Positions 3,513 to 53,832 are shown, numbered from the stretch's first letter. The stretch: 64,000 nucleotides of DNA from an uncultured Candidatus Saccharibacteria bacterium (GCA_964562105.1 CAZLRP010000001.1:2949-66948); one strand, 5' to 3'. Notes: generated from the letters alone by a model not told the origin. Numbers and translations: made by a program.

Positions 3513-3547
3513 TGATTTTTAATGAACGAATGTGAGTATAAAAATCA

Positions 3548-3580
3548 TGGCCCCGTCAAATGCATTTTTATTTGACTGGG
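3548..3580. repeat. P1-related palindromic element, intergenic variant (rpsJ-tuf spacer)
   Basis: GGCCCCGTCAAATGCATTTTTATTTGACTGGGC, same arms with a variant loop. Confidence 0.7.
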
Positions 3581-3583
3581 CTG

Positions 3584-3676: not shown

Positions 3677-4879
3677 TTACGCAATTATTTTCGTTATAAC
3701 TCCAGAACCAACTGTCTTTCCTCCCTCTCTAATAGCAAACTTCTGTTTATTTTCCATAGCAACTGGAGCAACAAGTTTTACTTTGAAAGTAACTGTGTCT
3801 CCCGGCATAACCATTTCTACTCCTGTAGCAAGCGTAACGTCTCCCGTTACGTCAGTCGTTTTCATATAGAATTGTGGCTTGTAACCTGTAAAGAACGGCG
3901 TATGTCTTCCACCTTCCTCTTTCTTTAATACGTATACTTCAGCTTCAAATTCTGTATGCGGAGTAATGGAACCAGTTTTTGCCAACACTTGTCCTCTGTG
4001 CACATCTTCTTTCTTTGTACCACGAAGAAGAACTCCGGCATTATCTCCAGCTTGTCCTTCTTTGAGCTGTTTATTAAACATTTCTATACCGGTGATAGTT
4101 GTTTTTGATGTTGGTTTGATACCGACAATTTCAACTTCTTCTCCGATTTTTATTATTCCTCTTTCAATTCTTCCGGTAACAACTGTTCCTCTTCCTTCAA
4201 TTGAGAAAATGTCTTCAATAGGCATAAGGAATGGCTTGTCAACATCTCTTACTGGGATTGGTATATATGTATCAAGCGCGGTCATAAGGTCAGTAATACA
4301 TTTTGCACCTGCATCATCTGCTGTTTTTGCCTTTAGAGCTTCCGTAGCTGAACCCCTTATGATAGGAGCTTTTTCTCCATCAAAATTATATTTGGTCAAA
4401 AGTTCTCTAACTTCTGCTTCAACAAGATCCAAAAGTTCTGCATCCGGAACTAGGTCAACTTTGTTTAAGAATACTACTATCTTTGGAACCCCAACTTGGT
4501 TTGCCAAAAGAATGTGTTCTCTTGTTTGTGGCATAGGACCATCAACTGCTGAGACAACAAGAATAGCACCGTCCATTTGAGCGGCTCCTGTAATCATGTT
4601 CTTGATGTAGTCAGCGTGACCCGGACAGTCTACGTGAGCATAGTGTCTTGAGTCTGATGAATATTCAACGTGAGAAATAGCGATGGTAATGATTTTTGTC
4701 GCATCTCTTCTTCCAGCTGATTCTGAAGCTTTTGCGATTTGATCGTAAGCTTTTTCATTAGCCAAACCTTTGAGCGATTGCACGTGAGTAATCGCTGCAG
4801 TCAAAGTTGTCTTACCGTGGTCAATGTGACCAATTGTACCGACATTTACATGCGGTTTATCTCTTAAAAAATCTGCCAT
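3677..4879 (-). CDS. tuf: elongation factor Tu
   Basis: [28 protein letters not shown]-motifs; 400 aa. Confidence 0.97.
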
Positions 4880-5869: not shown

Positions 5870-6019
5870 GACCTTCCTCCTTTTTATAAAATATGCCCGC
5901 TACTCACAGGCATTTACTGAATCTAAAGAAATCAAAGCATAATTTAAAATAAATGGCAATCAAAATGCGGGGCAGCCTTCGGCTGCCCCGCATTTTGTAT
6001 TTGTTATTTTCTTATTACT

Positions 6020-6060
6020 TCGTCGCCGGTCACAGGTATTTTTCTGCTGAAAAATCCCGC
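6020..6060. repeat. partial copy of the tRNA-linked module core (TTTTTCTGCTGAAAAA) downstream of fusA
   Basis: shares TCGTCG...TTTTCTGCTGAAAAA...CCGC with the two tRNA-linked copies. Confidence 0.4.
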
Positions 6061-6105
6061 GACCCCGACTCGCGCCGTCGCGCTCCGTCTCACACAAAGC
6101 AAAAG

Positions 6106-6137
6106 AAAAACACCCCATAAATCATAGGGTGTTTTTC
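6106..6137 (-). terminator. terminator after fusA
   Basis: AAAAACACCCCATAAATCATAGGGTGTTTTTC. Confidence 0.7.
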
Positions 6138-6139
6138 AA

Positions 6140-8296
6140 TTATTTGCTTTGTGTGCCCCTCACTTCAATAATTTCTTTGGCTACATTAGGAGGTACTATT
6201 TCATAGCTTCCGAATTCCATTGTGGACGAAGCTCTTCCCTCTGAAATTGACCTCAAGGTGGTAACATAACCGAACATTTCAGCAAGAGGAACATTAGCTC
6301 TGATAACTTTATTCATTCCTCTGTCAAACATTTCAGTTATTTGTCCTCTCCTTGAATTGATGCTTCCCGAAACATCTCCCATGAATTTTTCTGGAGTAAC
6401 AACTTCAACTTTCATTACAGGCTCAAGGAGAACCGGTCTTGCTCTTTTTGCCGCATCTTGAAATGCCATGGACGCTGCAATTTTGTAAGCGATTTCTGAC
6501 GAGTCAACATCGTGATATGAACCGTAAGTAAGTTCGCAAGAAATATTTACCATTCTATATCCGGCAATTACTCCTCTTTCCATGCTCTCTTTTACTCCTT
6601 TTTCAACTGCTGGAATAAATTCTTGCGGAATAACTCCTCCTTTAATAGAATCTATAAATTCAAAGTCATCGTATCTGCTAACATTCTTAGGAATTTTCTT
6701 GCCTTCCTCAAGTTTTTGCATCGGCTTAATTTTAATGAGAACGTGACCATATTGTCCTTTTCCTCCAGACTGTTTTATGTATTTTTCTTCTTTTTCAGCT
6801 TCTCCGGTAATTGTTTCTTTGTAAGCAACTTGTGGTTTTCCAACATTTGCTTCAACTCCGAATTCTCTTTTCATTCTGTCTACAAGAATTTCGAGGTGAA
6901 GTTCTCCCATACCTGCCATAACAGTCTCTCCCGTTTCTTGATCCGACTTGATTTTAAATGTTGGGTCTTCATCCGAAAGTTTCTTCAAAGCAAATCCCAT
7001 TTTTTCTTGGTCAGCTTTTGTCTTTGGTTCAATTCTAAGAGTAATAACCGGTTCTGGAAATACAATTTGGTCAAGAATTATCGGATTGGCTTCATCGCAA
7101 AGAGTGTGAGAAGTTTTCGCGTTTTTCAAACCGACAGCCGCCGCAATTTCTCCGGCAAAAACAGTCTCCACTTCTTCTCTGTCATTTGCGTGCATTCTGA
7201 CAATTCTTCCCAATCTTTCCTTTTCTCCGGTTGTTGAATTGTAAATATAAGTTCCCGAAGAAATACTTCCGGAATAAACTCTGAAATATGTAAGCTGTCC
7301 TACAAAAGGATCATTTTGCAATTTAAATGCCAGAGCGCAAAATGGATCTTCATCAGTTGCATGTCTTAAAACTTCTTCTCCATTGTTTGGATTTATTCCT
7401 TTTACTGGTGGAATATCAAGCGGGGAAGGAAGATAGTCAACAACTGCATCAAGTGTGAGTTGAATACCTTTATTTTTCAAAGCCGAACCTGTAAATACAG
7501 GAACAATCGTATTTGCAATGGTTGCTTTTCGGAGAACTGCTTTGAGCTCATCGATGGGAATCTCTTTTCCTTCAAGATAATCGTTCATAAGCTTTTCATC
7601 ATTTTCAGAAATTTTTTCTACAAGCTCAAGCCTGTATTTTTTTGCATTTTCCAAAAGTTCGGCAGGAATTTCTGCTTCTCTGACAACTTCTCCCATTTCG
7701 CCTTCAAAGTAATAGGCCTTCATTTTTAAAAGATCTACTATTCCTGAAAAATCAGATTCTGAACCAATGGGAAGCTGCATTCTTACAGCATGTTTTGTAA
7801 GTCTTTCCAAAATTGATTGAAATGATCTTTCAAAATTTCCTCCTGTTCTATCAAGTTTGTTTATCAAACAAATTCTTGGAACATTTCCTTCGTCAGCATA
7901 TCTCCAGTTTGTTTCTGATTGAGGTTCCACTCCTGCGACTCCGTCAAAAACAACTACGGCTCCGTCAAGAACTCTGAGTGAACGCTTAACCTCTGCGGTA
8001 AAATCAATGTGGCCGGGAGTATCAATGATATTGAATCTTACTTTCTTACTAAAATCGGTTTTTGGCATGTACGAAGGATTCCAAAAACAAGTAATAGCAG
8101 CTGACGTAATGGTAATACCTCTTTCTCTTTCCTGTTCCATCCAGTCGGTCGTAGTTTCTCCTTCGTGAACCTCACCGATATCGTGCTGAGATCCAGTGTA
8201 ATAGAGAATTCTTTCCGATGTGGTTGTTTTTCCGGCATCAATGTGAGCAATGATTCCAAAATTTCTTACTTTTTCTAATGGATAATCTCGTTTCAT
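6140..8296 (-). CDS. fusA: elongation factor G
   Basis: [28 protein letters not shown]; 718 aa EF-G architecture. Confidence 0.97.
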
Positions 8297-8299
8297 GTA

Positions 8300-8345
8300 T
8301 TTAATATGCGAATATACGAATTATGCGAATGATACGAATGGCTAC
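8300..8345. repeat. heptamer array upstream of fusA
   Basis: ATGCGAATATACGAATTATGCGAATGATACGAATGGCTAC. Confidence 0.65.
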
Positions 8346-8581
8346 AAATAAATACGATGAATTTTTATCATATCTATAATAGTTTTCGTAAGATTATTAT
8401 ACTATATTCATATTTAATTAATTGTTGATAAAATAATTTAAGTAATTTTAATTTACTTTTTTCTTTTTATTTTTAGTGAGATGCGAGGCGCTGAAAAAAT
8501 TTGTGACTAAAATGTACGTTGGTACATTGCAGAAACAAATTTTTTTAGCAACGAAGCAGATTGCAAAAATTAAAAGGAAAT

Positions 8582-11489: not shown

Positions 11490-12365
11490 CTATTTTTCTT
11501 CAATGATAGCCAAACCGCCAGAAATAAAAGAAATGTCTCCTAAATCATAAGTGATTAGCACTTTGCTTTTAATATCATTTAAAAAATCCAATATTTCTTT
11601 GTGTGGATGGCCATAACTATTATTTACTCCCGCAGAAATAACGGAGTATTCTGAATTAACGGCCGATAAAAATTCGGGAGAAAGAGAATTTTTTGACCCA
11701 TGGTGTGCAATTTTCAGCACATCGCTTTTTAATTCTGCTCCATCTGTTTTTGCCAGATATTCTAAAACATCAGTCGGCGCATCCCCAGTGAACATAAAAG
11801 TTGAATCCCCATAATAAAGCTCCGCCACGATAGAATATTTGTTTGTATCAGTTCCTTTTGGATTATTATTCGGATACAAAATTTTTAAATAAGCCCCGCC
11901 GCCAAGATCAAAAATTTTTCCCGTTCTCGCAATTTCTGTTTTTATATTCTTCTCCAAAATTTGATGCTCCAGTTCTTTGAAAGTTCCCGTGCTAGAAGTC
12001 GCTCCACTGCTTATGTATTTTCGAACGGAATAATTTTTAAAAACTTCGGGAATTCCTCCAATATGGTCTTGATCCGGATGAGTCACAAGAATCGCGTCTA
12101 TAGTCTTATCGTAAAAAGGCATTACCCTGCCCAGAGCATTTAAAATATTTTTATCCGGTCCCCCATCTATAAGAAGCTGATTGCCAATTGGCGATTCTAT
12201 AAAAATAGCATCGCCTTGGCCAACATCCAAAAATGAAACTTTTAAAACATTATTCCTGGTTTCGGCTACGACAGTATAAAAAATCATTCCGTTCACAAAA
12301 AGAAGCAGAGCCAAGAAATATATTTTTATTTTATTAAATTTAAACATTTTTTTGTATTGTGTCAT
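11490..12365 (-). CDS. ComEC-related metallo-beta-lactamase-fold domain protein (C-terminal module of ComEC as a separate ORF)
   Basis: LDVGQGDAIFIE...HPDQDHIGG MBL motifs after an N-terminal TM helix; the first ATG lies inside the GIY-YIG element's inverted repeat. Confidence 0.72.
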   Translation of the reverse strand: MTQYKKMFKFNKIKIYFLALLLFVNGMIFYTVVAETRNNVLKVSFLDVGQGDAIFIESPIGNQLLIDGGPDKNILNALGRVMPFYDKTIDAILVTHPDQDHIGGIPEVFKNYSVRKYISSGATSSTGTFKELEHQILEKNIKTEIARTGKIFDLGGGAYLKILYPNNNPKGTDTNKYSIVAELYYGDSTFMFTGDAPTDVLEYLAKTDGAELKSDVLKIAHHGSKNSLSPEFLSAVNSEYSVISAGVNNSYGHPHKEILDFLNDIKSKVLITYDLGDISFISGGLAIIEEK

Positions 12366-12718
12366 TCCCGCGCAGGCGGGAATCCAGTGTTAAATTATAA
12401 TTCTGAACTCAAATCTTTCCATTCTGGATTTTCTTTTTCAATCAACCTTCTTTTCCATAGCCTATTCCATCTTTTTATGCATTTTTCTCTTAATATCGCA
12501 CTTTCTATATCTGTTGTCTGTTCATAATATACAAGAGTTTTAACATTGTATTTTTTAGTAAAACCTTCAACTAAACAATTTTTGTGCTCATATACTCTTC
12601 TCAATAAATCGTTTGTAACTCCGATATACAATGTCCCATCACGCTTACTCGCTAAAATGTAAACATAATAATATTTCATGAAAAGATTATACTGGATTCC
12701 CGCCTTCGCGGGAATGAC
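12361..12718 (-). mobile_element. GIY-YIG family-1 element: 28-bp palindromic hairpins (GTCATTCCCGCGCAGGCGGGAATCCAGT) in inverted orientation flanking a GIY-YIG gene
   Basis: left hairpin 12361-12388, right hairpin 12691-12718; located between the two comEC ORFs. Confidence 0.7.
12395..12679 (-). CDS. GIY-YIG nuclease family protein (URI domain, YhbQ-like)
   Basis: YYVYILASKRDGTLYIGVTNDLLRRVYEH = GIY-YIG motifs; 94 aa; flanked by 28-bp inverted hairpins. Confidence 0.85.
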   Translation of the reverse strand: MKYYYVYILASKRDGTLYIGVTNDLLRRVYEHKNCLVEGFTKKYNVKTLVYYEQTTDIESAILREKCIKRWNRLWKRRLIEKENPEWKDLSSEL

Positions 12719-12723
12719 AAATA

Positions 12724-15546: not shown

Positions 15547-15589
15547 TGAAATGATAATACCATACGTTATACAAAATGAAAAAAGCATT

Positions 15590-15660
15590 GTCATCCCCGC
15601 GGAGGCGGGGATCCAGTATTAAATCAATTCATACTGGATTCCCGTTTTCACGGGAATGAC
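15590..15660. mobile_element. gene-less double-hairpin miniature of the GIY-YIG family-1 element
   Basis: GTCATCCCCGCGGAGGCGGGGATCCAGT + 15-nt spacer + ACTGGATTCCCGTTTTCACGGGAATGAC; same left-end spacer ATTAAAT as in the full element. Confidence 0.65.
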
Positions 15661-15670
15661 AATACAAAAA

Positions 15671-16279: not shown

Positions 16280-16339
16280 ACAACTATTGTATCAAATTGA
16301 TGATATAATATCATCTAATAAGATTTATTAAATTAATTT

Positions 16340-16385
16340 GAATTATTCGTAGCCATTCGTAACATTCGAATAATTTTCGTATATT
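16340..16385. repeat. heptamer array
   Basis: ATTCGTAGCCATTCGTAACATTCGAATAATTTTCGTATAT directly before an ATG. Confidence 0.65.
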
Positions 16386-16387
16386 AT

Positions 16388-16594
16388 ATGGAACAAGAAA
16401 CAATAAAAAAGCTCGCAGAGCTTGAAGAAAAAATTAACAATGTTTATGTATCGGTGGAAAAAACCAGAAAATATTTTTTTTGGACAATGATTATCACAAT
16501 AGCCGTAGTTGTTTTGCCTGTAATTGGGCTAATGTTTGCATTACCGTCATTTATGACTAATTATGTTGGCAGTTTACAAGGTTTGGGGATATAG
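16388..16594 (+). CDS. small membrane protein
   Basis: 68 aa, one TM helix; preceded by an ATTCGTA heptamer array. Confidence 0.35.
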   Translation: MEQETIKKLAELEEKINNVYVSVEKTRKYFFWTMIITIAVVVLPVIGLMFALPSFMTNYVGSLQGLGI

Positions 16595-24944: not shown

Positions 24945-25071
24945 ATTAAAAGAATATCAAAGTATAACTCGAAACACAAAACAAAATAAGAATATATTAC
25001 CCGAAACAAACGGTGGTGGCTATCGGGGATGTTTCCCTCGACTAAAAGCTCGTCGTCACTCGCTTTTGTCT

Positions 25072-25134
25072 GGGCACCAGCTCATTCGTTTTTTCTGCTG
25101 AAAAAACATCATTCCGCTGTTCAACCCCCGAACG
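25072..25134. repeat. tRNA-linked module downstream of tRNA-His
   Basis: GGGCACCAGCTCATTCGTTTTTTCTGCTGAAAAAACATCATTCCGCTGTTC followed by an inverted copy of the tRNA-His T-loop (CAACCCCCGAAC). Confidence 0.7.
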
Positions 25135-25199
25135 CAAGCAAAGCAGTTTGCTTGCTTAGCCACCCACGAAAAAACCCGCTTTCGCGGATCCTTTTTTCG

Positions 25200-25273
25200 T
25201 GGGTGGCTATCGGGGGTTGAACCCGAACAAAGAGTTCCACAAACTCTTGTGCTACCGCTACACCATAGCCACC
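25200..25273 (-). tRNA. tRNA-His (anticodon GTG)
   Basis: cloverleaf with extra 5' G(-1), anticodon loop TTGTGGA, T-loop GGGTTCAACCC. Confidence 0.85.
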
Positions 25274-25319
25274 ATGAACACCATTTATAACAGATTTTTA
25301 ATAGAAAATCTACCCGATT

Positions 25320-25377
25320 TTATATTTATTCGTAGCCATTCGTAGATTTGTATCATTCGTATATTTGTATGTTTATC
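25320..25377. repeat. heptamer array
   Basis: TATTCGTAGCCATTCGTAGATTTGTATCATTCGTATATTTGTATGTTTATC, ending at a gene stop. Confidence 0.65.
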
Positions 25378-25920
25378 TTAATATTTTGGAGACTCTTCAG
25401 TACCACTTTCCAATGCTGAATATCTCGCAAGCGCATACAAAAGACTGGATAAACGATTTAAAAAAACAAGAGTTTCTGAATCAATTTTTGCCATACCCTC
25501 TTCGTTTACTGCAACAACCCTTCTTTCTGCTCTGCGTACCAATGTACGAGCAAAATCAAAATCGGCAGACATTTCATTTGCACCGGAAATAAGAAAAGTT
25601 TTAATTGGCGGTAATTTTTTTTCTATATTATCAATAATATTTTCAAGATATTTTGTTTTTTCTTTTTGTATTTTTTTATCTGCACCAGCAACTTGGGCTT
25701 GAATGATAAAAATATTATTCTGAATTATATGAATAATATTCTGAATTTTTTCTCCATCAACCTTATAACTTTTAACTTTACACTTTATAACTCCTAAGTA
25801 TGAATTTGCTTCATCCAAGCACCCCAAAGCTTCGGTTATCGCCGAACTTTTTGAGATTTTCTGGTCGCAACATCCAAACATATTTGTTTTTCCTTTGTCT
25901 CCCTTTTTTGTGTAAAGCAT
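25378..25920 (-). CDS. cob(I)alamin adenosyltransferase (PduO-type)
   Basis: YTKKGDKGKT...ITEALGCLDEANSYLG pattern of PduO/MMAB. Confidence 0.78.
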   Translation of the reverse strand: MLYTKKGDKGKTNMFGCCDQKISKSSAITEALGCLDEANSYLGVIKCKVKSYKVDGEKIQNIIHIIQNNIFIIQAQVAGADKKIQKEKTKYLENIIDNIEKKLPPIKTFLISGANEMSADFDFARTLVRRAERRVVAVNEEGMAKIDSETLVFLNRLSSLLYALARYSALESGTEESPKY

Positions 25921-25976: not shown

Positions 25977-26708
25977 TTATATTAAACCCATCATATATTG
26001 AGCTCCTCCGAGCCAAAATATTACTGCCAAAAGAACGTAAAAACCGAAATGTATCATATAGCTGTACAAAAATCCTTTTTTTGATTTTGTAATGCAATAA
26101 GAAAATATCAAGCCGGCAAAAAATGAAACGCTAAAAAGTATTTTGCCCATAGATGTCGGTATAAAAAGAACTGGAAAATGTATAAACAGTGCATATAGAC
26201 CAAATAAAATCATGTCTTTATTTTTAGACACGTTATTATTAAAAAGATAATAAATACTTATCATAAAAAATGTCTGCTGAAACATTATTTCAAAAGCTTT
26301 TGTTACCAAAAATTTATTGTCCATTTGCAGTATCGCAGATAAATTGCTTTTCATCGCTCCCATTGGACTTCCCTCCGACAAAAGATTTAAAAAATAATAA
26401 ATTAGTATCACAGCCACCGAAAAAACCATCATGATAAACAAATCTTTGGGAGAAAATTGATCTACATATTCTCCTATTTCTTTTTTGAATATGGAAGTGA
26501 GAGCAACTATTACAAGTAAAAAATAAATACATGTTAGAAGATAGTTGTTTATATAGCTTATCCCTTGAGGTTGCAAATAAAGTATAAATACAGCCCAAAC
26601 TGAAAACCAAATAAACGATAAGCCGAAAATTTTATTGAAAGTTTTCATGATTAAATTATCTGAAATGTGCACAAGGGAGGAATCTTTAAACTTACAGTTT
26701 CTGTACAT
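25977..26708 (-). CDS. hypothetical polytopic membrane protein
   Basis: 6-7 TM helices; weak similarity to CAAX-protease (CPBP) topology only. Confidence 0.45.
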   Translation of the reverse strand: MYRNCKFKDSSLVHISDNLIMKTFNKIFGLSFIWFSVWAVFILYLQPQGISYINNYLLTCIYFLLVIVALTSIFKKEIGEYVDQFSPKDLFIMMVFSVAVILIYYFLNLLSEGSPMGAMKSNLSAILQMDNKFLVTKAFEIMFQQTFFMISIYYLFNNNVSKNKDMILFGLYALFIHFPVLFIPTSMGKILFSVSFFAGLIFSYCITKSKKGFLYSYMIHFGFYVLLAVIFWLGGAQYMMGLI

Positions 26709-26754
26709 CTTTTCTGTTTTTTATTTCGCAAAAACTCATAAAAAACTATCAAAG

Positions 26755-26851
26755 GTTTGCAAGTCCTCACGCAAGCAAAGACTTTTGCTTGCTTCCCGCG
26801 CATCAAAAATCAGCAAAAGCTGATTTTTGTGCACGGGAGAGGACTTGCACC
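26755..26851. ncRNA. about 100-nt multi-hairpin structured element (candidate small RNA or repeat)
   Basis: outer stem GCAAGTCCTC/GAGGACTTGC enclosing hairpins GCAAGCAAAGACTTTTGCTTGC and AAAATCAGCAAAAGCTGATTTT; the first hairpin recurs at 25132 and 51300. Confidence 0.35.
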
Positions 26852-26913
26852 TCCACGCCTTACGGCACAGGAACCTCAATCCTGCTTGGCTACTAATTAC
26901 AACACCCGTGCAT

Positions 26914-27597
26914 TCACTGTCTTCTATATTTTTTTTGCTGCCGTTTTTCCACACTTAATGCTTTCTCTATCTTTATCCTCTTTCTACCTAAGCAAACGAC
27001 TTTTCGATTATAATACATTGCCTTGATAATTTCTATAGCTTCTTTTTTGGCATATTTTAATTGTCCAGTTGACTTTTCTCCATCATTCGTGATGTGCCCA
27101 AAAACATTAATCCTGTTCGTTAACTCCGACCTCAACCAATTAATATGTTTCTTGCTCGCTGAAACAAACTCAACATAAAACATATGGCTTGAACGCCAAC
27201 GCGGATCCCAATACGAATAAAAAGTTCCGTCTCCATCAAAACAACCGCGTAAAAAATCAAAAAAATACTCTGATGGAATATCAACAACTCCTAAGCTTTT
27301 CGATTTTGCCCTGCTAATACCTATGGATTCTAAAAATTTGTAGAAAAAAATATCACTAAATTGCACTACATAATATTTCTTTTCTTTGTTTCCGCCGTTG
27401 CCTTTTTTGCCTACATTACATTTAATCCGTAATGCTTTTTGATAATTATCAATTTGTTCCTTGTCTTTGGAAGTAAAACTCACATGCCTACCATCTGGCG
27501 ATACGTTGCCATCAGTCGCAATCAAACCAATAGCATAAGCAAAATTCGGTGACCATGTTATTTTTACTTTTGCCTTTGGCTTTGGTCCTCTTTTCAT
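26914..27597 (-). CDS. LAGLIDADG homing endonuclease (two-motif, free-standing)
   Basis: YAIGLIATDGN and LRGCFDGDGTF LAGLIDADG motifs. Confidence 0.8.
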   Translation of the reverse strand: MKRGPKPKAKVKITWSPNFAYAIGLIATDGNVSPDGRHVSFTSKDKEQIDNYQKALRIKCNVGKKGNGGNKEKKYYVVQFSDIFFYKFLESIGISRAKSKSLGVVDIPSEYFFDFLRGCFDGDGTFYSYWDPRWRSSHMFYVEFVSASKKHINWLRSELTNRINVFGHITNDGEKSTGQLKYAKKEAIEIIKAMYYNRKVVCLGRKRIKIEKALSVEKRQQKKYRRQ

Positions 27598-28178: not shown

Positions 28179-29186
28179 TTAATTAGAAACTGTAACGGTC
28201 ATATTTTGAACTTTTTTTCTCAATTTTTTAGCATTGCCATAAGACAGCAATCCTAGATACGATTGTACTGTTTCCATCTTACCTTCTTTGAGTTCAATAT
28301 TTTTAAACATTCTTCTTTTTGTGACAGTCCTTATCACACAGTGATCGGGAAAATGTACCCAACCGAGAAAATCAATACCTGAAGTCAGTGTTTTCAAAAA
28401 TAATTTATCTGGATGTAATGTAAGCCTCAATTCATTCCAAAGAAACTCATTGATTTTAGGTATTGTATTTTCTAGCCGAGTTTTGTCTTGCGATAAAACT
28501 ACAAAATCATCAGCATATCTTATGTAATATTTTGCTTTTAGTTTGTGCTTTATGAACTGATCAAATTCATTCATATAAATATTCACTAGAAGTTGTGATG
28601 TTAAATTTCCAAGTGGCAAACCCCTCCCTTTCTCGGTAGAGTAAAAACTATGAATAATTTCGGATAGTAAATTGATGATATCCCCATCTGGTATATATTT
28701 ATTTAATATTTTCAATAAAATTTTTTGGTCTATTGAAGCAAAAAATTTCTTTATATCACATTTTAGAACCCAGACTGTTTTTGTGTTATTTTTTGAAACT
28801 TTATTTGAAAAACTTTTAAATCTTCTTATAGCTTTATGGGTTCCTTTTCCTAATCTACAAGAATATGAATCGGCAATAAAAGTCTTATCAAAAAACGGGT
28901 ACAATTTTCTATAAAGAGCGTGGTGCAAAAGTCTATCTCTGATTTTTGCTTTATGTATATTTCTTGGTTTTGGATCAGAAATATTAAATGCTTCATATAA
29001 AGAATGTTTGTAGGTTTTATTTTTTAATTCCATATGAAGTAAAATAATATTTGTCATTAAATGTCTTTGAAATTCCTCCACATCCTTGCGAGACTTTTTA
29101 CCAACAACAAATTCCCTCCACGCCTCTAGCAGGTTTTCCATTTCAATGATATTCTCATAACTGTCAGTAAGTTGGATTTTAGACAT
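28179..29186 (-). CDS. diversity-generating retroelement (DGR) reverse transcriptase
   Basis: RT motifs including YADD (IRYADDFVV); the DGR-specific LGNLTSQ variant of motif 4; adjacent TR/VR pair. Confidence 0.85.
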   Translation of the reverse strand: MSKIQLTDSYENIIEMENLLEAWREFVVGKKSRKDVEEFQRHLMTNIILLHMELKNKTYKHSLYEAFNISDPKPRNIHKAKIRDRLLHHALYRKLYPFFDKTFIADSYSCRLGKGTHKAIRRFKSFSNKVSKNNTKTVWVLKCDIKKFFASIDQKILLKILNKYIPDGDIINLLSEIIHSFYSTEKGRGLPLGNLTSQLLVNIYMNEFDQFIKHKLKAKYYIRYADDFVVLSQDKTRLENTIPKINEFLWNELRLTLHPDKLFLKTLTSGIDFLGWVHFPDHCVIRTVTKRRMFKNIELKEGKMETVQSYLGLLSYGNAKKLRKKVQNMTVTVSN

Positions 29187-29229
29187 AATTATTAGACCAT
29201 AAAAAATTAAACTATGATGCCCCCCCCCC
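29187..29229. promoter_or_regulatory. 27-bp divergent spacer between the RT and avd starts, plus the C10/G10 homopolymeric tract
   Basis: RT ATG at 29186 (minus), avd ATGATG at 29214 (plus), C10 at 29220-29229. Confidence 0.5.
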
Positions 29230-29610
29230 GAACAAAGACAGAAATTATTACCGCTTTTACAAAAAGTAAAAACTGTTTATATTCTTTGGTATGAATATTA
29301 TCAAATATTACCCAAACCACACAGATATTCTCTTGGCAACAGAATTGATACCCTTTTTGTAGAAATAATAGAAGCAATATCCATAGCAAGTTTTTTGCCA
29401 AAAGAAGAAAAAAGAACTTACATATCTATCGCCATCAGAAAACTTGATACGTTAAAAATCCTAATAATGGTTCTTTGGGAAACAAAATCACTGGACAATA
29501 AAAAGTATATCGCCCTATCGCTTCATCTGGATGAAATCGGGAAAATGCTCGGCGGTTGGAACGGGCAAATATTAAAACAAAACTCTCCCGCAAAAGCAGG
29601 AGAGAAATGA
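29214..29610 (+). CDS. avd: Avd-like DGR accessory protein (four-helix bundle), frame interrupted by a C10 tract
   Basis: Translation ...YQILPKPHRYSLGNRIDTLFVEIIEAISIASF...LHLDEIGKMLGGWNGQILKQNSPAKAGEK resembles Bordetella phage bAvd as recalled from memory (no alignment was run), including its C-terminus; the ATGATG start joins this frame only if the C10 run is C9. Confidence 0.6.
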
Positions 29611-29616
29611 AAAGAG

Positions 29617-29745
29617 TTGTGAACGCCAGCAAACCGATAGTTATCGTTCCAGTCTTCATCAAACCAATTCAGGTTCAGCTTACGCCTGCTGTCGTTCTCG
29701 TTGAGGTAAGCCACGTTGCGGTTGCCGTTAAGCTTGCAGACAGAA
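29617..29745 (-). repeat. DGR template repeat (TR)
   Basis: Adenine-rich copy (AAC codons: NGNRN, NEND, NLN, NDN in the target frame), invariant partner of the VR. Confidence 0.85.
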
Positions 29746-29799
29746 ATGTGCAAAATACCGTCTATGCCACCATCCCTTGAATACTCTAAGGATTGAATC

Positions 29800-30039
29800 T
29801 TATTTGACATCGTAATGCCTTAATATATTGCACCAAGTATCTTCATTTTTTGTGAAGAGTCTACATAAGTCCTCTGTTTGAAACCTTAGTCGCAAACGCT
29901 CCCAACTTATGGATACTGGATTCGGCAGTGAGAAACCGTAATCGCTCACATATTCACCTAATACCGATTTTATTTTAGCATAAAAAAACAGCTCGTCTAT
30001 CTTTACTGCTTTCGCAGTTTGGATAAACGAGCCGTTCAA
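29800..30039 (-). CDS. small ORF between VR and TR (hypothetical)
   Basis: 79-aa ORF only; no motif. Confidence 0.2.
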   Translation of the reverse strand: MNGSFIQTAKAVKIDELFFYAKIKSVLGEYVSDYGFSLPNPVSISWERLRLRFQTEDLCRLFTKNEDTWCNILRHYDVK

Positions 30040-30103
30040 ATCGAAAGAACTAAGTTCAAAGTTTCAAAGTGCAAGTACACAGTGACACAAAACTAAGTTC
30101 TAA

Positions 30104-30697
30104 TTACTTGTGAACGCCAGCAAACCGATAGCGAGCGCGCCAGTCTTCAACAAACCAATCCAGGCTCAGCCTACGCCTGCTGCCGCTCTCGCTGAGGTAA
30201 GCCACGCGGCGGCGGCCGCAAAGCTTGCAGACAGAACCGAGAGCAACAATGGGGAATTTTCTCTGAAGGTTCGGCTCTTTGACAGAGAGACCTAAAAGGT
30301 CTTGGATTGTGGCAGGTTTGTAGCCAGCTTTGTCCATCTCGGCGATTGCATCTTTCGAGGAAATGCTTTTATTGAAGTGAAAAATCGCCACTTCCTTGTC
30401 TACTTTTTTGCCATCTTTCAGCTTAGGGAAGGTTTTGGAAGTGATGTCGTCGTTCGCCCAATCAAACTTACCGAGCTTAATCGCCTCTTCCACGGAAATG
30501 GTCTCGTCAACCGGAACCATAAAGGTGTGGGTGATGAAGTTGGTCATTTTCGTGATTTCCACTGGTGGACACAAAGCTTCCTTCAGAGTTTTTTGCAAAC
30601 CCTTGGGATTTTCTATCCATCCCTGCATGAGACTGCTGTCCATTTCGGGCAGATTTTCTGCGATGCTAGCTACCAACTTTGCTGTTTGCTTATCCAT
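30104..30697 (-). CDS. DGR target protein with C-terminal variable repeat
   Basis: C-terminal 39 codons are the VR; good RBS (AGGAGG) upstream; ends ...YRFAGVHK at the VR end. Confidence 0.8.
   Translation of the reverse strand: MDKQTAKLVASIAENLPEMDSSLMQGWIENPKGLQKTLKEALCPPVEITKMTNFITHTFMVPVDETISVEEAIKLGKFDWANDDITSKTFPKLKDGKKVDKEVAIFHFNKSISSKDAIAEMDKAGYKPATIQDLLGLSVKEPNLQRKFPIVALGSVCKLCGRRRVAYLSESGSRRRLSLDWFVEDWRARYRFAGVHK
30109..30225 (-). repeat. DGR variable repeat (VR) at the 3' end of the target gene
   Basis: Differs from TR only where TR has A; runs to the target gene's stop codon. Confidence 0.85.
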
Positions 30698-33974: not shown

Positions 33975-34035
33975 AATTGTATTTATTCGTTGCCATTCGT
34001 ATCATTTGTATAATTCGTATATTCGTATGTTTATC
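33975..34035. repeat. heptamer array
   Basis: TATTCGTTGCCATTCGTATCATTTGTATAATTCGTATATTCGTATGTTTATC. Confidence 0.65.
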
Positions 34036-34593
34036 TTATTTATCTTTCATCTTTACTACAGTAAAATCCAAATTTAAAGACCATTCCGGAACTTTTCTGC
34101 CTTTTATTATTGAATCGGAAAATTTATTTAGCGACATTTTGGTTATATTTATTTTCAAAGGATAATTTTCCAAAGATTTTAAAAATAGTTGGATATTTTG
34201 CCATGCCCCTGTGGCATTAATGTTTATTTTTAATAATTCTTCCCCCATTTTGTCTCCTTTGTCATAAGTTGCGCTTGAAACGGTGTTTATATTGTATTTG
34301 AGCCCGGTATTTGAAATCAGCTGTTCTAATGTTTTTAGGAAATCAACGGTACCTCCTTTCGCTATAATATATTCTTCCAATTTTTTCTGATACATTTCAC
34401 CCAAAATCAAATCATCTTTCATCAAAGTTTCGGCACCTTCTTTTTTTAATTCCGTTTTTATATCGTTTGATTTATTTACAGATTCAGCAATCAAATTCTT
34501 CGTAAAAGAAAACAGAAATACAAAAGCGCCCATAGACGCAATGCCCAGAAGCAGAAAAACGGCTAATAATATTTTTGTTTCTTTTTTAGGCAT
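34036..34593 (-). CDS. type IV pilus assembly protein PilO-like
   Basis: N-terminal TM plus coiled coil; position after pilN. Confidence 0.5.
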   Translation of the reverse strand: MPKKETKILLAVFLLLGIASMGAFVFLFSFTKNLIAESVNKSNDIKTELKKEGAETLMKDDLILGEMYQKKLEEYIIAKGGTVDFLKTLEQLISNTGLKYNINTVSSATYDKGDKMGEELLKININATGAWQNIQLFLKSLENYPLKINITKMSLNKFSDSIIKGRKVPEWSLNLDFTVVKMKDK

Positions 34594-40679: not shown

Positions 40680-42472
40680 ACTACGTCAACAATCCTCAAT
40701 CTCAACTCTTCCCTACCTCCAAAAAAACTTTTCTCCAGATTCGCAAGTAAATCTATTTTTTCTCCTTTTTCTATTTTCACGGGAAAATCTTCCATCTTAA
40801 CAAAAAAACCAATCGCAGAAATAATTTGCCCTTTCTTATTTTTAAAATTTAGTTTCAAATGTTCATTTTTCTTTCCAAAAATTTTTACATCAGAAATTTC
40901 AATATTATGAAATGCAAAAATCGGTTTTGGATTATCCATTCCAAAAGGTGCAAGCAAACTGATTTCTTTTTCTAAATTATTATTTACATTATCAATATTT
41001 AAGAGAGCGTCCGCAATCAATTCTTTGTCTTCATTTTCGGACACGCTCAATTTCTGATATGCAACCTCAAGCCCATCGGCAAGCAAATCAACTTTTTCCA
41101 AACTCACAGAAAATCCGCCGGAAGAAAAATGTCCACCATACTCGTCAAATAGATGCGCTGATTTTCTCATCATCTCTACAATATTTACACATCCGTCAGA
41201 CCTGCATGAACCTTTCAGGGTTTTTCCTTCTTCTCTTCCCCAGAGAAAAACGGGGCCATTGTGCTCATCCATAAGCGAGTTTGCAACAAGCCCAAGAAGC
41301 GAAGGTTTCCAATCAGGGTTTCCCGCGACAAGAACTTTTCTTTTTTTGTTGGGATCAAATTCATACCAATGTTTTCTGATTTCTTTTACCATTGAAGCTA
41401 CGATCCCTTTTCTCTCATCATTTATTTTATTTAGATGAAGCGCATATTTGATGGCCTCGTTCTCATCTTTTGTCGTGAGTAAATTAAAAGCGTCTTCCGG
41501 AATTCCCATCCTTGAAGCCGCATTTATGCGAGGAGAAATCATAAAACCAATATCATCCTCGGTAATATTTTTTTGATCTGTTTTTATAATAGAAAGCAAT
41601 CTTTGGAGCCCTGATCTTGGAGATTTTCTCAAAACTTTCAAGCCATAGTAAGCAAAAAGTCTGTTTTCTCCGATAAGCGGAACCATATCGGAAATAGTGC
41701 CGATTGCCACCATATCTAGGAGCCACTTTTCCCAACCTGCCGTAAGACAGGTTGCTCCGAGAAATGTCGAGGAGTTTTCTCGTATTTTTTTTATCAAAGC
41801 CTGCACAAGCTTGAAAGCCACACCTGCTCCACAAAGATTTTTATCTGGATATTTACAATTTTTTTGTTTTGGATTGAGTATTGCGAGTGCATGAGGCAAT
41901 TCTTCCCTTGCCCCGTCAAATTGGCTTTTTATTTGACTGGGGTTTTCATCCAGCGAAATTCTTGGCAAGTGGTGGTCCGTGATTATCAAATCTATTTTGT
42001 GTTTTTTTATTTTTTCCGCTTCTTCAACATCGGCAATTCCGCAATCTACAGTAATAATCAAATCCACTTTATTTTTTGCAAATTCGTCCACTGCTTCATC
42101 ATTCAAACCGAAACCTTCAAGAACTCTGTGTGGAATATAATTTTTAAAGTTGTCATAACCGATTTTTTTGAAAAAGTCGTGCAAAATTACAGCACCGGGA
42201 ATTCCATCTGCATCATAATCGCTGTATATAACAATCTTTTCTTTCTTTTCAACAGCCGCCAAGATTCTTTCTACGGCTTTTTCCATTCCGAGCATTAAAA
42301 ACGGGTTATTATTTTCTTCAAAAATAGGGTTTAAAAGGGTTTCGGCTTCTTTTTCTGTTTTGATTCCTCTGTAATACAAGAGTTTGCGTAAAATTTCCGG
42401 AAATTTTCCCAATTCCTCATTAATTTTTTCTGGAATCTCATCTTTTACTAAATATTTTTGCATAAATAACAT
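40676..42472 (-). CDS. recJ: single-stranded-DNA-specific exonuclease RecJ (carries an in-frame palindromic-element insertion)
   Basis: DHH motifs (LIITVDCG, LIITDHH); 598 aa; contains the PSQIKSQFDG insertion. Confidence 0.9.
   Translation of the reverse strand: MLFMQKYLVKDEIPEKINEELGKFPEILRKLLYYRGIKTEKEAETLLNPIFEENNNPFLMLGMEKAVERILAAVEKKEKIVIYSDYDADGIPGAVILHDFFKKIGYDNFKNYIPHRVLEGFGLNDEAVDEFAKNKVDLIITVDCGIADVEEAEKIKKHKIDLIITDHHLPRISLDENPSQIKSQFDGAREELPHALAILNPKQKNCKYPDKNLCGAGVAFKLVQALIKKIRENSSTFLGATCLTAGWEKWLLDMVAIGTISDMVPLIGENRLFAYYGLKVLRKSPRSGLQRLLSIIKTDQKNITEDDIGFMISPRINAASRMGIPEDAFNLLTTKDENEAIKYALHLNKINDERKGIVASMVKEIRKHWYEFDPNKKRKVLVAGNPDWKPSLLGLVANSLMDEHNGPVFLWGREEGKTLKGSCRSDGCVNIVEMMRKSAHLFDEYGGHFSSGGFSVSLEKVDLLADGLEVAYQKLSVSENEDKELIADALLNIDNVNNNLEKEISLLAPFGMDNPKPIFAFHNIEISDVKIFGKKNEHLKLNFKNKKGQIISAIGFFVKMEDFPVKIEKGEKIDLLANLEKSFFGGREELRLRIVDVV
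41911..41942. repeat. P1 palindromic element (CCCCGTCAAATTGGCTTTTTATTTGACTGGGG) inserted in frame in recJ
   Basis: imperfect inverted repeat CCCCGTCAAAT/ATTTGACTGGGG around loop TGGCTTTTT; encodes PSQIKSQFDG on the gene strand. Confidence 0.85.
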
Positions 42473-43298: not shown

Positions 43299-43339
43299 AC
43301 GGTAAGATTATACCATTTTAAAAATATTTGGTATAATTG

Positions 43340-43450
43340 AGATACGAATATACAAATAATACTAATGATACGAATGGCAACGAATAAGAAATTAATTTGA
43401 TTCATTTGTAGCCATTTGTAACATTCGCATAATTCGTTAATTCGTATATC
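43340..43450. repeat. heptamer array (long)
   Basis: GATACGAATATACAAATAATACTAATGATACGAATGGCAACGAATAAG...TTGTAGCCATTTGTAACATTCGCATAATTCGTTAATTCGTATATC before an ATG. Confidence 0.7.
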
Positions 43451-43452
43451 AT

Positions 43453-43914
43453 ATGGAAAACAAAATCTCTTGGGTGGCGTTTGAATATAAAAGAAAAGAA
43501 AAAACCGCAGACTGGTATTGGGCAGTAATTCTTATATCTTTGGTCATAGTGGTAGCATCCATCATCATGCACAATGTTCTTTTTGCAATATTGATAATTA
43601 TCTCCACTGTAATTCTTATGTCATTTTCCGTAGTCGCCCCAAAAACAGTTGAGATAAGTGTAAATCAAAAGGGTGTTACCGTAGGAAAAGAAATGTATCC
43701 CTTTGCAACTCTTGAACATTTTTGGATAGAAAGTACAGACGAAGAAAACCAAAAGATTTTATTAAAATCCAAGAAATTAATTATGCCACTTATAGTTATC
43801 CCCCTTGAAGAACACCATCATCTGGATGTAAGAGAATTTTTACTGCAATATCTTAAAGAAGTAGAAATGCATGAGCCTTTGTCACAGAAAATAATGGAGC
43901 GATTAGGTTTTTAG
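43453..43914 (+). CDS. hypothetical membrane protein
   Basis: two TM helices, 153 aa. Confidence 0.45.
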   Translation: MENKISWVAFEYKRKEKTADWYWAVILISLVIVVASIIMHNVLFAILIIISTVILMSFSVVAPKTVEISVNQKGVTVGKEMYPFATLEHFWIESTDEENQKILLKSKKLIMPLIVIPLEEHHHLDVREFLLQYLKEVEMHEPLSQKIMERLGF

Positions 43915-47764: not shown

Positions 47765-47810
47765 TGTCATTTCCATAATATATTGCTATTCCCGCGCAGG
47801 TAGAAATGAC
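47765..47810. mobile_element. degenerate solo copy of the family-1 hairpin
   Basis: GTCATTTCC...ATTCCCGCGCAGGTAGAAATGAC. Confidence 0.4.
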
Positions 47811-49747: not shown

Positions 49748-50812
49748 ATGGAAAAGATAAAAAACGAAGACTTAGGTTATGATACTTTTTTTGAATTAAA
49801 CAGATTAAAATTGGGTGAATTTTCTGTTGGACGAGTTATTGCTGAATATAAAGAAGTTTATAAAATCAAAAATTCAACTAGTGAATATTTGGCTAAAGTA
49901 ACTGGAAAAAGAATATTTAACGCTTCATCAAGAGAAGATTATCCTGCTGTCGGAGATTGGGTAACAATTACTGAACTTAATTCTGAACAAGCTGTAATTC
50001 ATGAGATATTACCAAGAAAAACCGTAATAAAAAGAAAAAGCAATAACAAAAATGAGGTACAAGTAATCGCAACAAATATCGATATTGCGCTTATTGTCGA
50101 ATCAATTGATAGAGATTTTAACTTAAACCGCTTTGAAAGATATTTTACTATTGCAAATGATGGTGGAATAAAATCTACTATTATATTAAATAAGATAGAT
50201 TTAATTTCCAAAGAAGATTTAGCTGCAAAATTAATAAAAATAAAAAATAGATTTAATAATATCGATATTATCTTAACCAGTGTTATAACAAGCGAAGGGT
50301 TAGATGAATTAAACAAATATATCTTACCTAAAAAAACTTATTGTTTCCTAGGTTCATCAGGTGTTGGAAAATCATCTTTAATTAATAAATTACTTGGCGA
50401 AAATTCAATTGAAACAAAAGATATAAGTTTTCAAACCGGCAGAGGAAAACATACTACTACAAGCAGAGAAATGTACTTTTTAAAAAATGGGGGTATTGTT
50501 ATAGATAACCCAGGGATGAGGGAGGTTGGAATGACAAATACAACCCTTGGTATTGATAATTTCTTTGATGAGATAACGGCGCTGTCTAAAGAATGCAGAT
50601 ATTCTGACTGCTCCCACACTTCTGAACCAGGGTGTAAAGTTTTATCTGAATTGAAATCTGGCAGATTAGATGAAAGTAAATATTCAAATTATATTAATTT
50701 AAAAAAAGAAACTGAATATTATGATATGACTGATTTTGAAAAAAGAAAAAAAGATCACAAATTTGGAAAATTTATTAAAAAAGCAAAAGAAGAGATAGAA
50801 AAATATAAATAA
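49748..50812 (+). CDS. rsgA: ribosome small-subunit-dependent GTPase A
   Basis: LGSSGVGKSSLIN P-loop; C-terminal CRYSDCSHTSEPGC zinc knuckle. Confidence 0.88.
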   Translation: MEKIKNEDLGYDTFFELNRLKLGEFSVGRVIAEYKEVYKIKNSTSEYLAKVTGKRIFNASSREDYPAVGDWVTITELNSEQAVIHEILPRKTVIKRKSNNKNEVQVIATNIDIALIVESIDRDFNLNRFERYFTIANDGGIKSTIILNKIDLISKEDLAAKLIKIKNRFNNIDIILTSVITSEGLDELNKYILPKKTYCFLGSSGVGKSSLINKLLGENSIETKDISFQTGRGKHTTTSREMYFLKNGGIVIDNPGMREVGMTNTTLGIDNFFDEITALSKECRYSDCSHTSEPGCKVLSELKSGRLDESKYSNYINLKKETEYYDMTDFEKRKKDHKFGKFIKKAKEEIEKYK

Positions 50813-50930
50813 TATTTAAATTAATTATTGACTTAAGCACACAAATTGGTGTGGCTATAACTTTTACTTTTTGGGAGCTCAAATAGTTCATCGCCCGCAC
50901 CTCTCACCTCGTCGACACTCGGTTCGGGTT

Positions 50931-50990
50931 GGGCACCAGCTCATTCGTTTTTTCTGCTGAAAAAACATCATTCCGCTGTTCGATTCCAAC
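50931..50990. repeat. tRNA-linked module downstream of tRNA-Lys
   Basis: identical 51-nt core followed by an inverted copy of the tRNA-Lys T-loop (GATTCCAAC). Confidence 0.7.
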
Positions 50991-51061
50991 ACGTGAGCCA
51001 AGCAGTTGGCTCACTTAAGCGCACAAAATAAAATCAGCCCCTTCAGGCTGATTTTATTTTG

Positions 51062-51134
51062 TGCGCTTAGTTGGAATCGAACCAACGACCGTCTCCTTAA
51101 AAGGGAGCTGCTCTACCGACTGAGCTATAAGCGC
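51062..51134 (-). tRNA. tRNA-Lys (anticodon TTT)
   Basis: cloverleaf; anticodon loop CTTTTAA; T-loop GGTTCGATTCC. Confidence 0.85.
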
Positions 51135-51195
51135 ATGCAATAACCGAGAAAATATAACAAGAAATTAACAAAAAGTCTATAGATAAACCTATGTT

Positions 51196-51346: not shown

Positions 51347-51362
51347 CAGACTCACTGCCCTT

Positions 51363-53775: not shown

Positions 53776-53832
53776 AATTAATGTGATATTTAGTATACAG
53801 TTATAGCATAAGAAAATCAAAAACAAAAAATT

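Follow-up and report, generated by a model that had tools for sequence, protein, structure and literature searches.

Structured modules at the 3′ ends of tRNA genes in a Paceibacteria-like genome as candidate site-specific insertion units

Integrative elements of tRNA genes and cis-mobilisable elements (CIMEs) insert in the 3′ part of the tRNA, where they are flanked by direct repeats, restore the gene, displace its old end and can accrete in tandem. At the CTX phage attP(+) hairpin, used with XerCD, and at integron attC sites, recognition is of a strand-specific fold with extrahelical features and not of sequence, and arrays of short cassettes are possible; the layout after CTX integration reads direct repeat, cargo, inverted arm, loop, target. 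Structured RNAs can also be linked to tRNA, as with the box C/D guide in the archaeal tRNA-Trp intron and tRNA-like handles such as mascRNA. The tandem interspersed guide RNA (TIGR)-Tas systems of parasitic bacteria and bacteria of the candidate phyla radiation (CPR) are Nop-domain, RNA-guided systems with dual guides beside hairpins (PMC12045711), and plant dicistronic tRNA-small nucleolar RNA genes are cited in a passage of the same article. Here we describe a module found directly 3′ of tRNA genes in a 64,000-nt stretch of DNA deposited as Candidatus Saccharibacteria (GCA_964562105.1, CAZLRP010000001.1:2949–66948), referred to throughout as the window (34% G+C, 11 tRNA genes called by ARAGORN). 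Our tentative reading, to which we give a probability of about 0.45, is that it belongs to a family of small (~110–190 nt) Paceibacteria insertion modules that have no open reading frame (ORF) and are specific for the 3′ ends of tRNA, and occasionally other, genes.

The original prediction, made from the window alone, described four elements behind both tRNA-His and tRNA-Lys: a terminator hairpin pairing with the tRNA end, a small hairpin, a segment complementary to the T loop, and an identical block. We found all four at both loci, far beyond chance. The identity of the block is confirmed at 100%, although it measures 52 nt and not 51 nt (25071–25122 = 50930–50981; no match expected from 100 shuffles). 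The block is the core of a ~150-nt module abutting the 3′ end of each of the two tRNA genes, with the following parts.

25201–25272, minus strand: tRNA-His(GTG) (ARAGORN; Rfam, 59 bits), its last 9 nt being the outer part of the terminator stem
25166–25200, minus strand: His terminator hairpin (A-run, G+C-rich stem-loop, T-run)
25157–25165, minus strand: His segment a, complement of the acceptor 3′ strand, discriminator and +1 (9/9 match)
25132–25156, minus strand: His 25-nt hairpin (HP), exactly between the acceptor-matching and T-stem-matching segments
25120–25131, minus strand: His segment t5L′, complement of the T loop and T stem 3′ strand (12/12 match)
25078–25119, minus strand: His core helix P2, with a CAGC/GCUG base, invariant internal loop and covarying hairpin
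25035–25074, minus strand: His core helix P1, subtype A1, with the conserved 12-nt loop GAGUGACGACGA
25015–25028, minus strand: His distal direct repeat of the T stem 3′ and acceptor 3′ strands (13–14/14)
51061–51134, minus strand: tRNA-Lys(TTT) (ARAGORN; Rfam)
51025–51060, minus strand: Lys terminator
51016–51024, minus strand: Lys segment a, acceptor 3′ copy
50991–51015, minus strand: Lys HP, 25-nt hairpin
50979–50990, minus strand: Lys segment t5L′; with segment a, 21/21 match to tRNA-Lys
50937–50978, minus strand: Lys P2, identical to the His copy
50894–50933, minus strand: Lys P1, subtype A2, with the stem rewritten and the loop kept
50834–50893, minus strand: Lys distal part, remnant of an older unit of another type, starting TGTGGCTATAACTTTT (cf. 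L011, L014 and L012)

The last 14 nt of tRNA-His are repeated directly at the far end of its module (25015–25028 = 25202–25215), where, on the tRNA strand, the repeat pairs with segments a and t5 to complete an acceptor/T-like stem; the locus also holds an 18-nt perfect inverted repeat (25157–25174 and 25192–25209). The Lys module is without a clean distal direct repeat, and its distal remnant includes the acceptor copy of the older unit, CTTAAGCACAC. Read on the tRNA strand, HP consists of an A, 9 bp, a CUGC tetraloop, the return of the 9 bp, and GU; the 3-nt CUG loop assigned to this hairpin at first is therefore replaced by one of 4 nt on a 9-bp stem. With segments a and t5L′ on either side of HP, the arm pairing with the acceptor and the T-loop complement, originally listed as separate elements, are halves of one inverted copy of the last 21 nt of the tRNA. 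This copy spans the T loop, T stem 3′ strand, acceptor 3′ strand, discriminator and +1, and is split by HP at tRNA position 65/66. P2 makes up most of the 52-nt block at the His locus, and its internal loop on the tRNA strand, GGAAUGAUG/CGAAUGA, is invariant. The view that the block is not a peptide gene held up: the sole ORF across the His unit (25029–25220, 63 aa) is not conserved, and the hairpins cut through it.

Relatives were sought with a two-anchor pattern from the core, in one scan of species-representative genomes and one of Joint Genome Institute (JGI) metagenomes; loci outside the window carry L numbers. Four of the genome-scan matches (L003, L004, L007 and L009) were dropped as chance matches with differing gap lengths. 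Eight true loci in other contigs (5 genomic, 3 metagenomic) each lie directly 3′ of tRNA-Lys, Ala, Val, Arg, Phe or His, with the core always on the strand of the adjacent tRNA. Counted over all public contigs other than the window, the core was found in 10, next to these six kinds of tRNA. A covariance model built from 12 units and run over ~200 kb of sequence regained all 12 and added weaker relatives at tRNA-Leu, Pro, Val, Lys and Phe and, as a new target, tRNA-Thr. Every match of at least 20 bits is immediately 3′ of a tRNA gene and on its strand, and two weak matches of 17 and 13 bits are away from tRNA genes. Many non-tRNA copies without a matching segment, which the original prediction had named as the outcome that would tell against it, were not seen: copies lie only downstream of tRNAs, bar the two weak matches, and the sole non-tRNA cousin, downstream of fusA, has a segment matching its own neighbour gene.

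The variable segment follows the cognate tRNA, as had been proposed for the two loci. In 14 units, whose neighbouring tRNAs stand for nine amino acids, segments a and t5L′ together match the local tRNA at 17–21 of 21 positions, and the same arms match other tRNAs at a mean of 6–14/21. The tRNA-Thr unit matches at 11/11 in its T-loop/T-stem part and at 6/10 in its acceptor part. The T loop of tRNA-His is TTCAACC in the window and TTCAACT in L008, and the units differ likewise. The direct repeat is found at 13–14/14 in 9/12 type-A units. Segment a complements the tRNA 3′ strand exactly and does not copy the 5′ strand; position 3 is A (A3-U70) in the Ala units but G (G3·U70) in the real tRNA. A departure from complementarity recurs in two Ala units, the Phe unit and the L010 Arg unit, in which CGAG in the tRNA is faced by CGAG, and not CTCG, in the arm; the remnant at tRNA-Arg(tcg) in the window keeps CTCG.

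L006 ~1880–1900, L013 ~3945–3960, L012 ~285–300 and L010 ~7290–7300: arms with CGAG facing CGAG

CGAG facing CGAG is a stable context for tandem G·A pairs, and the folded sense strand would be expected to form such a pair here.

In an alignment of the 12 units, 97% of the cells in paired columns are paired and 19/34 pairs change on both sides, values reached by 0/500 shuffles, and slid controls are ~40% paired. HP alone is 100% paired, with 4/9 pairs changing on both sides; HP and the P2 hairpin covary freely, and subtypes A1 and A2 share the 12-nt loop of P1 on stems that are entirely different in sequence. The signal has a strand. There are 24 G·U cells on the tRNA strand versus 1 on the opposite strand, the CGA...GAG of subtype A2 gives a tandem G·A pair on the former and a pyrimidine clash on the latter, and the alifold energy is -43.7 in sense versus -34.7 in antisense. 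The predicted fold of one unit has -60.3 kcal/mol (z -5.5), against -49.2 for its antisense strand; in it, segment a pairs with the distal repeat as a 9-bp acceptor-like stem, followed by HP, a T-like stem, P2 and P1. Because the covariation is strand-specific, we infer that the working form is a single tRNA-sense strand. When tRNA and unit are folded as one transcript, the 3′ half of the tRNA is predicted to be drawn into a long fold-back. The suggestion of an RNA that pairs with its upstream tRNA is not supported as it was worded, given that the read-through transcript is predicted to misfold that tRNA and does not obviously serve it. Co-transcription of tRNA and unit looks harmful in these folds, and the presence of a terminator between them would make sense because read-through looks harmful.

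The arrangement of the units, read along the tRNA strand, is tRNA 3′ end, terminator, complement of the acceptor 3′ strand, 25-nt hairpin, complement of the T stem 3′ strand and T loop, two-hairpin core, direct copy of the last 14–20 nt, and old trailer. With this layout the gene is left intact and has gained a terminator, and its old end has been pushed downstream. Comparison with relatives is consistent with insertion. In L008, which is syntenic with the window, tRNA-His is followed by three tandem 188-nt units, against one in the window; the unit is 88% identical between the two, the flanking proteins 71–73% and the flanking DNA 72%, and identity of the unit above that of its flanks reflects constraint or recent spread. 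The tRNA-Leu gene of L008 has a plain terminator and no module, and that of the window has a module. The distal tRNA-Leu copy in the window is followed by ATTTCAGATAATTTAAT, which matches the native trailer of L008, ATTGCAAATAATTGAAA, at 14/17, and the trailer now adjoining the tRNA-Leu of the window is unrelated to that native trailer. In L014 the tRNA-Pro and tRNA-Gly(tcc) sites are empty, and tRNA-Lys has a different unit stack in each of five genomes (window, L002, L011, L014 and L016). At least three core types are built on the same adaptor layout, namely A (subtypes A1 and A2), B (including the fusA copy) and P, and a fourth kind of unit, type C, which begins TGTGGCTATAACTTTT, occurs in the same stacks. 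Contigs assembled from short reads end within the repeated blocks. It had been held against an attachment (att) site origin that the tRNA-derived segment is inverted and not direct; that objection falls because a direct repeat of the tRNA end flanks the module, and the tRNA-Leu site that is empty in a relative still has, in the window, the old tRNA end and trailer beyond the insert. The reading best supported by the displaced gene ends, the empty sites, the mixed stacks and the tandem copies is that of an insertion element.

The module is not confined to tRNA-His and tRNA-Lys, as was first thought. It is also found at tRNA-Pro and tRNA-Leu, with remnants at tRNA-Gly(tcc) and tRNA-Arg(tcg), while 5/11 tRNA genes of the window have nothing. 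These further copies are as follows.

61639–61812, minus strand: tRNA-Pro module, same architecture with another core, type P (covariance model, 26 bits)
61777–61812, 61768–61776, 61743–61767, 61731–61742 and 61639–61652: terminator, segment a, HP, t5L′ and direct repeat of the tRNA-Pro module
26667–26828, minus strand: tRNA-Leu module, partly decayed, with an AT-rich core (covariance model, 30 bits)
26805–26828, 26794–26804, 26769–26793 and 26758–26768: terminator, segment a, HP and T-loop copy of the tRNA-Leu module
58540–58614, minus strand: remnant downstream of tRNA-Gly(TCC), with terminator, acceptor complement (58565–58572) and degenerate hairpin
63660–63735, plus strand: remnant downstream of tRNA-Arg(TCG), with terminator, acceptor complement (63700–63708) and degenerate hairpin AGCAAGCAAATCTACTTTACTTTCC

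The displaced old end of tRNA-Leu lies at 26667–26680 and is followed by the ancestral trailer. The tRNA-Pro module is present in the window and absent from L014. Separately, tRNA-Pro adjoins the gene for the CCA-adding enzyme in both the window (61813–61884) and L014 (19546–19617), in opposite orientations, which suggests a local inversion.

The relative of the shared block reported downstream of fusA at 6020–6060 is real and extends over 6018–6155. It has in common with the module the 16-nt hairpin TTTTTCTGCTGAAAAA.

6018–6155, minus strand: type-B cousin, between the fusA stop codon (6140–6142) and the old fusA terminator (5962–5996)
6018–6091 and 6092–6155: core and long hairpin of the cousin

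The cousin has no T-loop segment; instead, the outer arm of its long hairpin (6143–6155) equals the last 13 nt of the fusA coding sequence before the stop. In the fusA relatives L020 and L021 the stop codon is ~15–25 nt from a AAATACAAAA-type terminator, whereas in the window the 138-nt type-B element lies between the two. Past this element, just before the intact old terminator, is a diverged relic of the old fusA end, GGCGACGAAGTAATAA. Since the present C-terminal codons of fusA differ from this relic, it seems that a gene end of its own came in with the type-B element.

A mechanism of insertion can be outlined. The active form would be a single tRNA-sense strand, either single-stranded DNA or RNA, in which the direct copy would pair with the split inverted copy to give an acceptor/T-stem-like helix; the 25-nt hairpin would occupy the place of the tRNA body, and the core hairpins that of the T loop. 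A protein supplied in trans might recognise the conserved hairpins while the exposed T-loop complement finds the T loop of the target gene by base pairing. A single strand would then be exchanged at the T-loop/T-stem boundary, and replication would fix the insert. Further insertions into the regenerated site, or slippage between direct repeats, would account for stacks and tandem copies.

Several points weigh against this proposal. The weakest is the re-matching of arms to new targets, a step that would have to be supposed. The same cores carry arms for tRNAs of at least seven amino acids and, in type B, for fusA, more than a classical integrase with a single att site can account for. We found no integrase, transposase or HUH enzyme beside any unit inspected or among 51 ORFs of the window scanned with Pfam, and no free, circular or excised form of a unit was seen. 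The direct repeat alone cannot separate an att copy borne by the element from a target-site duplication, and the 14/17 trailer match, lying in AT-rich DNA, is suggestive and not proof. The terminator and the predicted misfolding upon read-through weigh against co-transcription but are no proof of a DNA intermediate. Finally, the high conservation of the core, its invariant internal loops and a kink-turn (K-turn)-like motif fit a working RNA equally well.

The last point leads to the main rival to insertion, namely that the units are genes for a small structured RNA of the tRNA strand. Its acceptor/T-like stem would be a handle by which RNase P, RNase Z and the CCA-adding enzyme excise and stabilise it, much as in dicistronic tRNA-small nucleolar RNA genes or tRNA-scaffolded RNAs. 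The RNA would act through the conserved core, or else be guided to the cognate tRNA by the two parts of the 21-nt complement, perhaps within a K-turn/Nop-type ribonucleoprotein. We consider this possible, if rather unlikely. Covariation and wobble pairs do favour the tRNA-sense strand, the orientation to the tRNA is fixed, and the core is more conserved than neighbouring coding DNA; yet a terminator precedes every unit, no promoter is evident, and the units are gained and lost among close relatives and mixed in stacks, unlike a housekeeping RNA. The predicted fold resembles a cloverleaf in which the 25-nt hairpin takes the place of tRNA nucleotides 8–48, but its 5′ acceptor-like strand complements the 3′ strand exactly and does not reproduce the tRNA 5′ strand (as with A3-U70 in Ala), such a handle has no need of a T-loop complement, and read-through is predicted to sequester the 3′ half of the tRNA. 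The invariant GGAAUGAUG/CGAAUGA loop, the tandem G·A pairs, a weak C/D-box-like match (14 bits) and the CGAG/CGAG of four units, which would form a tandem G·A pair in a single-strand helix, all speak for an RNA; exact C/D boxes are absent, however, the guide segments pair with one strand only, and Rfam scores are far below threshold. RNA-guided Nop-domain systems whose dual guides lie beside hairpins do occur in CPR bacteria (PMC12045711). The parallel with TIGR-Tas would serve as a lead only, as its defining boxes, opposite-strand pairing and protein were not found here, and no Nop-domain protein was found in the window. The insertion and RNA readings are not exclusive, and the units could be mobile RNA genes.

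A more far-reaching form of the insertion proposal, which we regard as doubtful, is that the modules belong to a new nucleic-acid-guided insertion system: a ~150-nt module would carry a programmable, hairpin-split complement (~21 nt) of the end of its target gene and a replacement gene end, a trans-acting enzyme would select tRNA and other gene ends for insertion with their help, and the arms would be fitted to new targets by templated rewriting. In a variant, the module would encode a bacterial guide RNA directed at its own tRNA.

It is improbable, in our judgement, that the modules are scars of larger integrative elements (prophages or the like of integrative and conjugative elements, ICEs) internally deleted to attL/attR and the integrase arm regions, and so cis-mobilisable remnants. 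The direct repeats of the tRNA end that flank the insert, the displaced old end and the accretion-like stacks would all fit. The same ~115-nt core with the same boundaries is, however, found at tRNAs for seven amino acids in several genomes, and this weakens the case because independent deletions would not yield the same core boundaries. Compensatory changes and strand-specific wobble pairs are moreover unexpected for double-stranded arms that bind protein, and no larger relative was seen in the viral contigs scanned, nor an integrase nearby. The two readings first offered, remnants of integrative elements and an RNA pairing with the tRNA, are both still live, but ‘mere remnants’ is not tenable, the conserved part being a covarying single-strand structure. 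Highly improbable is a passive by-product without element or function, in which terminator palindromes grow by template switching (quasi-palindrome correction) and tRNA ends duplicate by slippage, for although long perfect hairpins take in the gene end at tRNAs and at fusA and L008 has a tandem duplication, this accounts neither for native trailer replacement nor for a covarying core and 25-nt hairpin at one position in unrelated tRNAs and genomes, and is already largely refuted by the shared core.

The search for known enzymes and families gave the following. The Pfam scan of 51 window ORFs returned the reverse transcriptase of a diversity-generating retroelement (DGR), a LAGLIDADG ORF and housekeeping genes, with 14 ORFs lacking a Pfam match; there was no Nop or IS110 domain among these 51 ORFs, 14 of them without any match, the scan covering the window only. 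The only reverse transcriptase found is part of the DGR. This retroelement (28179–30697, minus strand) consists of the reverse transcriptase ORF (28179–29186; RVT_1, E 1.5e-25), a template repeat (29617–29745) and a variable repeat (30108–30236) at the 3′ end of ORF 30104–30697, and 18/18 mismatches between the two repeats are at template adenines. An Rfam scan of the window at the gathering threshold gave 10 tRNAs and nothing else. Rfam 15 run in E-value mode on L008 1560–2260 and window 50800–51140 returned true tRNAs only, with chance-level matches to the units, and neither ARAGORN nor Rfam RF00005 detected a tRNA cloverleaf in the units. The families without a match include the self-cleaving ribozymes, 6S, tmRNA, YrlA and IS605-orfB/HEARO. 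No promoter for the units was evident in a promoter scan that was uninformative.

Other candidates were set aside. A self-cleaving ribozyme, raised by the tandem 188-nt array, has neither a hammerhead nor a hairpin-ribozyme core by eye, and none was returned by Rfam. A box C/D guide RNA reaches 14 bits (SNORD52) against a gathering score of 45. On the sense strand a hairpin lies between AUGAUGU and AUGA, neither of them an exact box (RUGAUGA for C, CUGA for D), and the target segments are not beside a D box. For a group I intron in a tRNA-like gene the cores are too small, and a paper on Patescibacteria tRNA introns concerns anticodon-loop introns. A retroviral-type primer-binding site was rejected because the complement lacks CCA and runs on into the genomic trailer, and a phage or plasmid origin on three scans of viral contigs without a true match, L019 being a spurious match inside coding sequence. 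The idea that the arm arose by fold-back synthesis from the native trailer was rejected because the adjoining trailer is not ancestral and HP interrupts the arm. No Rfam family describes the modules, nor does any paper that we found, our literature searches having returned none on such modules.

Both RsgA and EF-G of the window have homologues whose source names are Paceibacterota or Patescibacteria. Assembly CAZEMP01 (L002, L006 and L021) has a metagenome-assembled genome title reading ‘Candidatus Saccharibacteria’; its EF-G is 94% identical to that of the window and its tRNA-Lys is identical, for which reason the title is probably wrong and the assembly a close Paceibacteria relative of the window.

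Other observations concern the surroundings. tRNA-Leu(GAG) (26829–26911) is an ARAGORN call missing from the Rfam gathering list and has an odd T loop, TGCAAGT; the relic beyond its module is closer to the normal T loop of the relative, TTCAAGT, and a LAGLIDADG_3 ORF (26914–27597) lies directly upstream. A second repeat family has hairpin-containing inverted terminal repeats, TTGTCATTCCCGCGSAGGCGGGAATCCAGT, that flank a 94-aa ORF (12395–12679, in an element at 12355–12720) which appears GIY-YIG-like by eye. It also occurs as ORF-less pairs resembling miniature inverted-repeat transposable elements (MITEs) at 15584–15662, 51190–51349, 53827–53906 and 47779–47807, and the copy at 51190–51349 holds an HP-like hairpin and is the weak covariance-model match of 17 bits. 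Near-identical terminator-like hairpins, CCCCGTCAAATTGGCTTTTTATTTGACTGGGG, occur in five places (3529–3582, 41890–41943, 53115–53168, 53613–53666 and 59798–59851). Arrays of the motif ATTCGTA/TACGAAT, with a period of ~10–11 nt, lie in several intergenic regions, including just upstream of tRNA-His, and may be promoter-proximal binding sites or UP-like elements.

1549–1677, 8298–8366, 16335–16398, 25317–25380, 33975–34038, 43334–43457 and 59369–59432: ATTCGTA/TACGAAT arrays

If the modules are mobile, no smaller site-specific insertion element for tRNA genes is known, and the service of many targets by one scaffold would mean that target choice is written in short, exchangeable segments, the property behind the interest in, and use of, CRISPR, OMEGA, bridge-RNA and TIGR systems. 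If they are RNAs, CPR bacteria, whose RNA biology is largely unexplored, would have a new class of tRNA-coupled structured RNA. The modules also explain assembly breaks beside tRNA genes in these genomes, and they can replace gene 3′ ends, including a few fusA codons, and add terminators, and so shape gene ends in very small genomes.

Among known systems, MITEs and the palindromic repeats (REP/BIME, Correia and RUP) resemble the modules in being short, ORF-less, multi-copy, hairpin-rich, intergenic and often terminators. The modules differ from them in being strictly site- and orientation-specific, with arms copied from or matched to the neighbour gene. A MITE was rejected as an identity: the ends are target-derived (a 14–20-nt direct repeat varying by locus), and constant terminal inverted repeats are lacking. 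Small RNAs linked to tRNA offer a likeness in that a structured unit is coupled to a tRNA gene and complementary to its own tRNA, and a tRNA-like helix could recruit processing enzymes; in the modules, however, a terminator stands between tRNA and unit, and presence and number vary among close relatives. Our literature searches returned no bacterial tRNA-linked small RNA of this kind.

The IS110 bridge RNA and TIGR-Tas are similar in having structured units of ~150–190 nt, 9–12-nt target segments that flank a hairpin, and a second hairpin with a constant internal loop, and TIGR also in its tandem arrays. In the modules, by contrast, both segments pair with the same strand, contiguously, and direct repeats of 14 nt are present. 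No IS110 or Tas gene was seen, nor any recombinase ORF in or beside the units. An IS110 bridge RNA was rejected on the absence of a recombinase ORF, the complementarity of both segments to one strand, and the 14-nt direct repeats.

The CTX and attC systems may be compared with the modules in layout and in strand-specific fold, the modules, too, running direct repeat, cargo, inverted arm, loop, target. The modules differ in that the target is the end of a tRNA gene and not dif or attI, in lacking a GTTRRRY core site, and in the 21-nt complementarity of the arm. Of the attC R″/R′ sites (RYYYAAC ... GTTRRRY) no match was found in the modules: the base of the long hairpin is tRNA sequence (GTTCAAC, GTTCGAT), which does not fit GTTRRRY. 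To our knowledge, no dependence of the modules on Xer or IntI has been described.

The tRNA-gene integrative elements and CIMEs share with the modules the features set out at the start. The attL/attR arrangement of a direct repeat, an intact tRNA and a displaced copy by the ancestral flank is seen in the His repeat, in 9/12 units and in the filled and empty tRNA-Leu sites. No integrase was found in the window ORFs or by the inspected units, which at ~110–190 nt have no ORF of their own. Compared with these elements, the modules are set apart by this small size, by one core family that serves many tRNAs and a protein gene, by an extra inverted copy of the target split by a hairpin, and by a core that is constrained as a single-strand structure.

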